Made by a program: the position numbers and the translations under genes. The notes beneath the pieces are model-generated. The model did no database searches. It was not told where the DNA came from and saw nothing but the letters and a program-made list of their open reading frames with translations. Below, one piece after another: positions 18,685-19,793 of a DNA stretch of 64,000 nt (positions are counted from its first letter, which is position 1; each line of letters starts with the position of its first letter). Origin of the DNA: a virus (Duplodnaviria; Caudoviricetes); the IMG/VR virus record IMGVR_UViG_3300020177_000966. One strand, written 5' to 3'.

Positions 18685-19569
18685 ATGGTAGATAATAATA
18701 TCCCTAAACCGGGGATCGTTGGTGGAAATCCACTAGCAAAACACTTAAGACAACCAAAAATTTACATCAGACTTCCAAGTAAAGGAAAATATTGGCCAGT
18801 TGGCTCTATTGAAATTCCTGAATCAGGAGAGTTTGCTGTATACGCAATGACCGCAAGAGATGAAATTGCATTTAAAACGCCTGATGCGTTGTTAAACGGT
18901 CAAGCAACTGTTGATGTTATTCAGAGTTGTGTTCCTGCTATTAAAGATGCATGGCAAACACCGTCAATTGATTTAGATACAATATTAATTGCAATCAGAA
19001 TGGCTAGCTTTGGCGAAACTATTGATATGACTACGCAGATTCCTAATACTGAAATTACTAAAGATTTTCAATTTAATCTGCAAAATCTTTATGACAAATA
19101 TACAAATACTACTTTTGAAGATACATTTCAAATTGAAGGGTTTGCTGTAGAAATTAAACCAGTATCATATAAAACATCTACTGAACAAAGTATTAAAGCA
19201 TTTGAACAACAAAGAATTTTTAATATTGTTAATGATAATTCACTTGATGACGGGCAAAAACTTAAACAATTTCAAGATAGTTTTAGAAAACTAACAGATA
19301 TTAATCTTAATGTTATGATTGAAAGTGTTACAGCAATACAGCCCGACGGGGATGACGTTGCAGTAACTAACAGAATACATTTAACTGAATTCTTATCAAA
19401 CTGTGAAGCAAAAACTTTTAATCAAATTCAAGAACATATTAAAGATCAAAGAGCAAAGTTTACACAAGCACCTGTTGATGTTGAAGCGACCGAAGAAGAA
19501 ATTGCTGCCGGTGCACCTAAAGTATATTCAATTCCGGTTACGTTTGACCAAAGCAATTTTTTCGGCTAA
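18685..19569 (+). CDS. Baseplate hub assembly chaperone, gp26-like
   Basis: NPLAKHLRQPKIYIRLPSKGKYW...MTARDEIAFKTPDALLNG...SIDLDTILIAIRMASFGE resembles T4-like gp26 family proteins. Confidence 0.75.
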   Translation: MVDNNIPKPGIVGGNPLAKHLRQPKIYIRLPSKGKYWPVGSIEIPESGEFAVYAMTARDEIAFKTPDALLNGQATVDVIQSCVPAIKDAWQTPSIDLDTILIAIRMASFGETIDMTTQIPNTEITKDFQFNLQNLYDKYTNTTFEDTFQIEGFAVEIKPVSYKTSTEQSIKAFEQQRIFNIVNDNSLDDGQKLKQFQDSFRKLTDINLNVMIESVTAIQPDGDDVAVTNRIHLTEFLSNCEAKTFNQIQEHIKDQRAKFTQAPVDVEATEEEIAAGAPKVYSIPVTFDQSNFFG

Positions 19570-19620
19570 GGATTTTAACGTGGGACCTCGATAAAATCCA
19601 AACCGAGGTTAAAATCCTAG
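19557..19620 (+). promoter_or_regulatory. -1 ribosomal frameshift signal: slippery heptamer plus stimulatory hairpin
   Basis: T TTT TTC at 19557-19563 in X XXY YYZ phase; 5-nt spacer; 11-bp stem AGGATTTTAAC (19569-79) / GTTAAAATCCT (19608-18). Confidence 0.75.
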
Positions 19621-19793
19621 AAAAACAGGTAACGGAAATTAAAACTGAGCTAGTAAAAACTTGCTGGTGGATGCGAGGAGCAGTTTCTCTTATCGAAGCA
19701 TACGAATTAACTGTTGAAGATCGTCAGATTATTAACAACGTTATCAAAGACAACTTAGAACAATCTAAAAAAACTGGAAAAGATTTTTGGTAA
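19557..19793 (+). CDS. Start-less -1 frame ORF (gp51/lambda-T-like chaperone extension), probably expressed by programmed frameshift
   Basis: Open in the -1 frame from TGA 19545-47 to TAA 19791-93: FFRLRILTWDLDKIQTEVKILEKQVTEIKTELVKTCWWMRGAVSLIEAYELTVEDRQIINNVIKDNLEQSKKTGKDFW. No in-frame ATG/GTG/TTG before 19671. Confidence 0.7.
   Translation, partial: FFRLRILTWDLDKIQTEVKILEKQVTEIKTELVKTCWWMRGAVSLIEAYELTVEDRQIINNVIKDNLEQSKKTGKDFW

Follow-up and report, generated by a model that had tools for sequence, protein, structure and literature searches.

We examined a 64,000-nt stretch of DNA from an uncultured giant phage related to T4 (hereafter the window), which forms part of a 124-kb viral record with a CheckV completeness of 35%. 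On its plus strand, the gene at 18685-19569 encodes a protein of 294 aa that matched the Pfam family PF12322 (T4_baseplate) over residues 63-255 (E 1.2e-10; 41.9 bits, cut-off 24.5) and the PHROGs baseplate hub family phrog_150 (E 5e-16), and it was the sole PF12322 match in the whole 124-kb record. The relatives of the window are giant myoviruses, namely 121Q/PBECO4, PA5oct, Atu_ph07 and Phosso, at 29-31% protein identity. At the level of sequence, the gene is supported as a predicted hub (tail) assembly chaperone of the T4 gp26/gp51 family. Many PF12322 members have a zinc ribbon of two CxxC pairs; the window protein has cysteines only at residues 82 and 240 and no CxxC. The clade without the two pairs comprises the window and L001-L013, L018 and L020, and both pairs are present in L016, L017, L019, L024-L026, PA5oct and 121Q. 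In the relatives L034-L036, which carry two genes, the pairs are kept in the long paralog and missing from the short one. The absence of CxxC in the window protein is a lineage loss and no bar to PF12322 membership.

The hub gene is flanked by a T4-type portal gene (14577-16292) and by an opposite-strand ORF of 767 aa, the PA5oct counterpart of which is annotated as a structural protein. A convergent 255-aa ORF lies 3' of the hub gene, followed by gp46/47-like genes, a late sigma factor and baseplate genes. The first-pass annotation had noted that the G/GT frameshift of lambda-like phages lies next to the tape measure gene; no tape measure gene adjoins 18685-19569, and the position is not one between tail tube and tape measure genes. 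A 590-aa ORF (22666-25450, minus strand) and a 336-aa ORF (25509-26339, minus strand) occupy the places of the SMC_N/AAA_23 and Metallophos (gp46/gp47-like) genes in the syntenic relative L036 and are adjoined by a gp55-like late sigma factor (phrog_12791); together these confirm T4-type replication and late-transcription modules. Within the baseplate/tail module, a single ORF of 4987 aa (38230-53193, plus strand) lies directly 3' of a gp6-like wedge gene (34742-38230) and is among the largest ORFs to be expected in any phage. The portal gene of L036 (3818-6709, minus strand, 963 aa) holds an intein with an HNH endonuclease domain (Pfam Portal_T4, Intein_splicing and HNH_3). A blastn search of the locus against the phage collection gave no match, and for P0135 no relative was found among viral contigs.

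The hub gene ends AAT TTT TTC GGC TAA, which places a slippery heptamer, T_TTT_TTC (U_UUU_UUC), in the X_XXY_YYZ phase of the 0 frame. The first-pass annotation had read this end as a programmed -1 frameshift site followed by RNA structure, and the elements that it described are present in the sequence. The features of the locus are as follows.

18685-19569, plus strand: 0-frame gene, gp26-like baseplate hub assembly protein, predicted short form of 294 aa (PF12322, phrog_150)
19545-19547, plus strand: TGA stop of the -1 frame (-1 frame translation)
19557-19563, plus strand: slippery heptamer T_TTT_TTC in 0-frame phase X_XXY_YYZ (in phase in 111/111 loci)
19564-19569, plus strand: spacer GGCTAA, 5-6 nt, including the 0-frame stop TAA at 19567-69 (sequence)
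19563-19793, plus strand: -1 frame extension, 76 new codons (RLRILTW...GKDFW) and TAA (open frame, protein conservation)
19570-19599, plus strand: stem S1, GGATTTTA (19570-77) with TAAAATCC (19592-99), conserved stimulatory stem (covariation in relatives)
19585-19609, plus strand: possible stem S2, ACCTCG (19585-90) with CGAGGT (19604-09) (seen in the sequence; pseudoknot inferred)
19569-19618, plus strand: alternative perfect 11-bp stem, 19569-79 with 19608-18, 5 nt past the heptamer, which excludes S1 (minimum-free-energy structure)

The -1 frame is open from the TGA at 19545-47 up to the TAA at 19791-93, so that a slip would add 76 codons and the predicted products are 294 and 369 aa (293 + 76). 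Because the -1-frame TGA lies at 19545-47 and the 0-frame TAA at 19567-69, a shift is confined to a 19-nt overlap, which also occurs in most close relatives. The first canonical start in the -1 frame of the window is the ATG at 19671, with no ATG, GTG or TTG earlier. The long form would cross the junction as ..SNFFRLRIL.., giving the junction peptide ..SNFFRLRILTWDLDK.

We then compared the site across relatives. The first locus set included 26 IMG/VR loci (34-52% identity) and the cultured phages 121Q, PA5oct, Atu_ph07 and Phosso, with an overall protein identity to the window of 29-52%. The heptamer was in phase in all of these (31/31 loci) and in a further 80/80 loci of another clade, 111/111 in total. 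In an alignment of 20 diverse genes, the two phenylalanine codons of the heptamer were fixed at the nucleotide level (TTT, 20/20; TTC, 20/20), whereas each of the remaining 51 conserved amino-acid columns showed synonymous variation, including two other conserved phenylalanine columns with TTT:TTC ratios of 9:7 and 11:7. After the heptamer, C and G were invariant and the next base was fully degenerate, which amounts to an arginine codon (CGN) in the -1 frame; the 0-frame residue at this point varied (G, A, V, E, D). All-pyrimidine heptamers and UUY codons in the A site are frameshift-prone in Escherichia coli (Sharma et al., 2014; PMC4066793). A sequencing indel at the T run was ruled out, since the same arrangement recurs in 111 independent assemblies.

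A homopolymer of six T could in principle also act during transcription, with the polymerase adding one U in the run so that part of the mRNAs would encode the same fusion. A polymerase generally slips efficiently only on runs of about 8-9, yet the run was six long in 109 of the 111 loci, seven in two and longer in none. Both the X_XXY_YYZ phase and the C that follows the run were constant, neither of which a polymerase would need, and a covarying structure, be it stem or pseudoknot, at 4-6 nt downstream (see below) is a mark of ribosomal -1 shifting. We regard transcriptional slippage as quite improbable at this site.

The reading frame behind the heptamer was maintained as consistently as the heptamer itself. 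The -1 frame measured 73-79 codons in relatives and 77 codons in every one of the 80 loci of the other clade, and no interrupting stop was found in the extension (0/111 loci). In the first set it extended 70-75 codons past the 0-frame stop, the position of which shifted between 1 and 4 codons after the TTC. Variation by codon position followed the -1 frame (position 2 < 1 < 3), alike in the first 12 codons and further on. The protein sequence was conserved from FFR onward, with FFR-x-R/K at the junction and the motifs W-x-M-R-G and I-I-K-E-N in the extension.

Such a frame might instead encode a separate protein of about 70-76 aa, translated either by ribosomes that reinitiate past the gp26-like stop or from a non-canonical start codon, with no fusion made. 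Some lineages do carry an ATG overlapping the 0-frame stop, as ATGA (Atu_ph07, Phosso, L020/21) or TAATG (121Q), and separate translation of the extension could occur in these as well. GenBank records treat it inconsistently: 121Q (gene 595) and Phosso list the extension as a hypothetical gene of its own, Atu_ph07 has a truncated 40-aa call (gp687), it is unannotated in PA5oct, and none of these four records (L028-L031) carries a ribosomal slippage label. Gene callers also return many free-standing proteins of 58-98 aa with the extension. However, there is no ATG, GTG or TTG before the conserved region in the window and in many relatives, and among the 80 loci of the other clade 24 have no canonical start up to codon +15, which rules out free-standing translation as the general mechanism. 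The FFR-x-R/K motif lies upstream of any such start and is nonetheless conserved as protein, with its CGN arginine codon invariant, and two separate genes would leave both the nucleotide fixation of TTT TTC and the in-frame fusions described below unexplained. The idea that homologs might have a start of their own is thus borne out for some lineages and fails for the window and for those 24 loci; as an explanation of the locus, we consider two separate genes very improbable.

We next considered RNA structure downstream of the heptamer. In the window, the 60 nt after the heptamer folded at -17.6 kcal/mol (z -3.27), and 0/200 shuffles were as stable. The minimum-free-energy fold is the perfect 11-bp stem to which the first-pass annotation gave priority, and the second, nearer partner that it listed for GGATTTTA is likewise exact, so that two folds are possible; both registers are kept in relatives. 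It was this nearer pairing, S1, perfect in the window, that had the best covariation support, and the ranking of the two stems was accordingly reversed. Across 18 diverse sequences, in which the 5' arm began 5 nt after the heptamer, 70.6% of S1 cells were paired as compared with at most 50% in slid controls, and compensatory changes exceeded those of all shuffles. The far 3' arm of the alternative stem was paired at 63.4% in relatives versus at most 45% when slid, with its register kept. The spacer between heptamer and stem was 4-6 nt in relatives.

The clade of L025 provided a denser sample (52 distinct sequences). Here S1 was 92.5% paired and showed compensatory changes: pair 12-45 was UA in 31 sequences and CG in 13, and pair 15-42 was GC in 44 and AU in 6. 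In a second stem, S2, the S1 loop pairs with bases some 25 nt farther downstream; S2 was 74% paired, and several of its pairs were compensatory. Taken together as an H-type pseudoknot, S1 and S2 were 83.6% paired versus at most 50% in slid controls, a level that 0/500 shuffles reached. S1 and S2 of the window might form such a pseudoknot as well; the 3' arm of S2 is more distant in the L025 clade than in the window (19604-09). After the site, nested folds had only a moderate energy advantage over other parts of the same loci (mean z -1.05), and the nested-fold signal is not universal, being weak in L011, L013, L016 and L022. No Rfam family was found at the window locus.

Two further observations concern the same region. 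A Shine-Dalgarno-like AAGGA with a GTG at 19580-19594 (plus strand) leads into an ORF of just 4 codons in the third frame, and a comparable out-of-frame ATG or GTG occurs in the relatives L001 and L005; the AAGGA is part of stem S1 and not a start signal. In the lineages with an ATG over the stop, a very stable long-range stem begins at that ATG (z -3.3 to -4.7 versus the rest of the locus; L028 and L031, both 2316-2420; L020, 3010-3100); placed 2-3 nt after the heptamer, it would sequester the start codon.

A search with the extension profile matched 478 proteins. In 20 of these (319-351 aa) the extension forms the in-frame C-terminus of a longer protein, with the junction ..LD-x-S-x-x-F-R-x-K-L... 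Where contigs reached upstream of such a long gene (4/4; L034-L037), a short PF12322 paralog of 276-296 aa lay directly 5' of it. Gene order in L036 is the same as in the window (portal, 765-aa protein, hub gene, gp46/47-like genes), and the short paralogs of L034-L036 clustered with the window clade in a tree (95/93 support), which did not resolve the branching place of the long paralogs. T4 gp26 and gp51 paired on very long branches in this tree, which may be an artefact. None of the four short paralogs has a -1 ORF after the heptamer position; the heptamer is decayed in two (TTC TTT; TTT TTA) and kept in the other two (L034, L035), so that the protein motif NFF could account for some of its conservation.

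The two retained heptamers show that relics of the signal exist, and the window could likewise hold a leftover signal and downstream frame of an ancestral arrangement, in a phage that has ceased to make or need the long form. Against this, purifying selection acts on the extension, which shows codon periodicity and conserved motifs; its length hardly varies, and it is uninterrupted in 111 loci. Moreover, genomes with the slip site lack a second PF12322 gene that could supply the long form (one PF12322 gene in 6/6 complete genomes; T4 has two). A relic in the window is, in our judgement, barely credible.

Nucleotide-level selection on the heptamer, coding in the -1 frame from the very next codon and a covarying structure downstream leave a programmed -1 shift at T_TTT_TTC as the only reading that fits all lineages. 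We put the probability that the gene yields a short and a long form in this way at roughly 85%, on comparative sequence evidence, and in this the proposal of the first-pass annotation stands: the conservation that it named as a check was found, with the heptamer in 111/111 loci and a stem that covaries in relatives. In the mechanism that we infer, which takes in the slipping itself, its rate and a binding partner for the extension, the majority of ribosomes would end at the TAA at 19567 and release the 294-aa short form. Some would stall at the RNA structure 5-6 nt downstream, which may be S1, possibly pseudoknotted, or the alternative 11-bp hairpin. Stalled with two Phe-tRNAs on UUU UUC, these ribosomes would move one base back to UUU UUU and continue in the -1 frame. 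The resulting long form of 369 aa would consist of the first 293 residues and a helical extension of 76 residues. The short form would correspond to T4 gp26 and the long form to gp51, and both would cooperate to assemble the complex of baseplate hub and tape measure, as lambda G and GT do.

For annotation, this would mean that hundreds of giant-phage genomes, 121Q, PA5oct and Atu_ph07 included, separate or omit an extension that should belong to one gene with two products. The tandem two-gene relatives represent a natural experiment and would indicate that both forms are needed, and the covarying pseudoknot offers a ready model for studies of U_UUU_UUC shifting in bacteria.

Comparison with T4 supports the pairing by architecture. 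T4 gp26 (208 aa) and gp51 (249 aa), described as hub assembly chaperones (Leiman et al., 2010; PMC3004832), both belong to PF12322 like the window protein and match the profile end to end. Gp51 adds about 48 C-terminal residues to its PF12322 domain (residues 1-201), and the last residues of gp26, ..KEFFELL, fall at the position equivalent to the 0-frame end of the window gene, ..SNFFG. Both systems would pair a short form that stops at an FF motif with a longer one whose C-terminal extension is helical, and the PF12322 domain with its extension and the tandem short and long paralogs of L034-L037 bear out the gp26/gp51 pairing that had been proposed from the window alone. They differ in that T4 has two diverged genes on opposite strands whereas the window phage has one gene with a slip site, in the length of the extension (76 aa in the window, about 48 in gp51) and in the cysteines, gp26 and gp51 each having one CxxC and an adjacent cysteine pair whereas the window protein has no CxxC.

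Homology between the extension and the gp51 C-terminus had also been proposed for profile comparison, and here the sequence signal is marginal. With hhalign, the extension aligned to the gp51 C-terminus at a probability of 15% (E 0.0018), rising to 52% (E 1.5e-4) with larger alignments, over 35 columns around Y..M.P.ER. When whole long forms were compared with gp51, the N-terminal part alone aligned (probability 81%), a result that is silent on the extension. Searches of Pfam, PHROGs and NCBIfam with the extension alone gave nothing credible; gp51 homologs have a second Pfam family on record, PF28602. In AlphaFold models, a natural long form (pLDDT 90) and a gp51 homolog (pLDDT 91) shared one helix order after the last beta-hairpin: a short helix that holds the junction, a long one, a short one and a long terminal one.

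The principle seems to have been described already. According to papers that cite them, Vladimirov, Gautam and Davidson (Virology 2022;566:9-15) reported gp26 and gp51 as the TAC-N/TAC-NC pair of T4-like phages. As that work is cited in the PRFect paper, T4-like phages have a short gene and a fused long gene in place of frameshifting, and as cited in the paper on phage Adele, poly-T slip signals occur in the TAC-N genes of T4-like phages; going by these two citations, the principle is already published. A literature search for frameshifting in jumbo-phage baseplate hub genes returned nothing apart from Vladimirov 2022, and baseplates are not mentioned in the 2016 recoding review. The window locus is a further example of the known frameshift principle. 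Our comparison possibly reaches beyond the 2022 paper in how widely the frameshift extends within this group of giant phages, the covarying pseudoknot and the replacement by tandem paralogs. Specifically, we tentatively propose, at slightly less than even odds, that the 121Q/PA5oct/Atu_ph07-type cassette (an invariant U_UUU_UUC, a stem or H-type pseudoknot that covaries, and an extension of 76 aa) lies outside that paper and that the slip site was replaced at least once by a tandem short and long pair with a relic heptamer. If so, a slip site and gene duplication would be interchangeable routes to two chaperone forms.

The equivalence with lambda G and T, also put forward in the first-pass annotation, would hold for the short/long logic; no fold link to lambda-type chaperones was found. 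The window protein belongs to a different family, and neither its sequence nor its fold matched known chaperones significantly. Foldseek against the PDB gave nothing under E 0.001, the HK97 chaperone 2ob9_A appearing only weakly at rank 43 (E 2.3; TM 0.42 by target), and a profile sequence search of the PDB gave no match. A wide VIA-align search returned only generic helical hairpins (residues 140-195), and matches in an ESM Atlas shape search were confined to the PF12322 domain (residues 1-267). Lambda-type genes sit between the tail tube and tape measure genes, whereas the window gene adjoins the portal gene and the 767-aa protein.

In lambda, G and GT are made at a ratio of 30:1 (2016 recoding review), and the -1 frameshift of gpG/gpGT is reported as conserved in the genes for tail assembly chaperones in long-tailed phages (Levin 1993; Xu, Hendrix and Duda 2004; both as related in PMC5009743). 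As in lambda, a -1 slip close to the chaperone gene's 3' end would give a short and a C-terminally extended form that have the N-terminal part in common, and both forms would function during assembly, with neither expected in the virion, for the window by analogy with T4 gp26 and gp51. For T4 itself, the comparison would provide independent comparative support for viewing gp26 and gp51, long puzzling, as a short/long pair of the lambda G/GT type.
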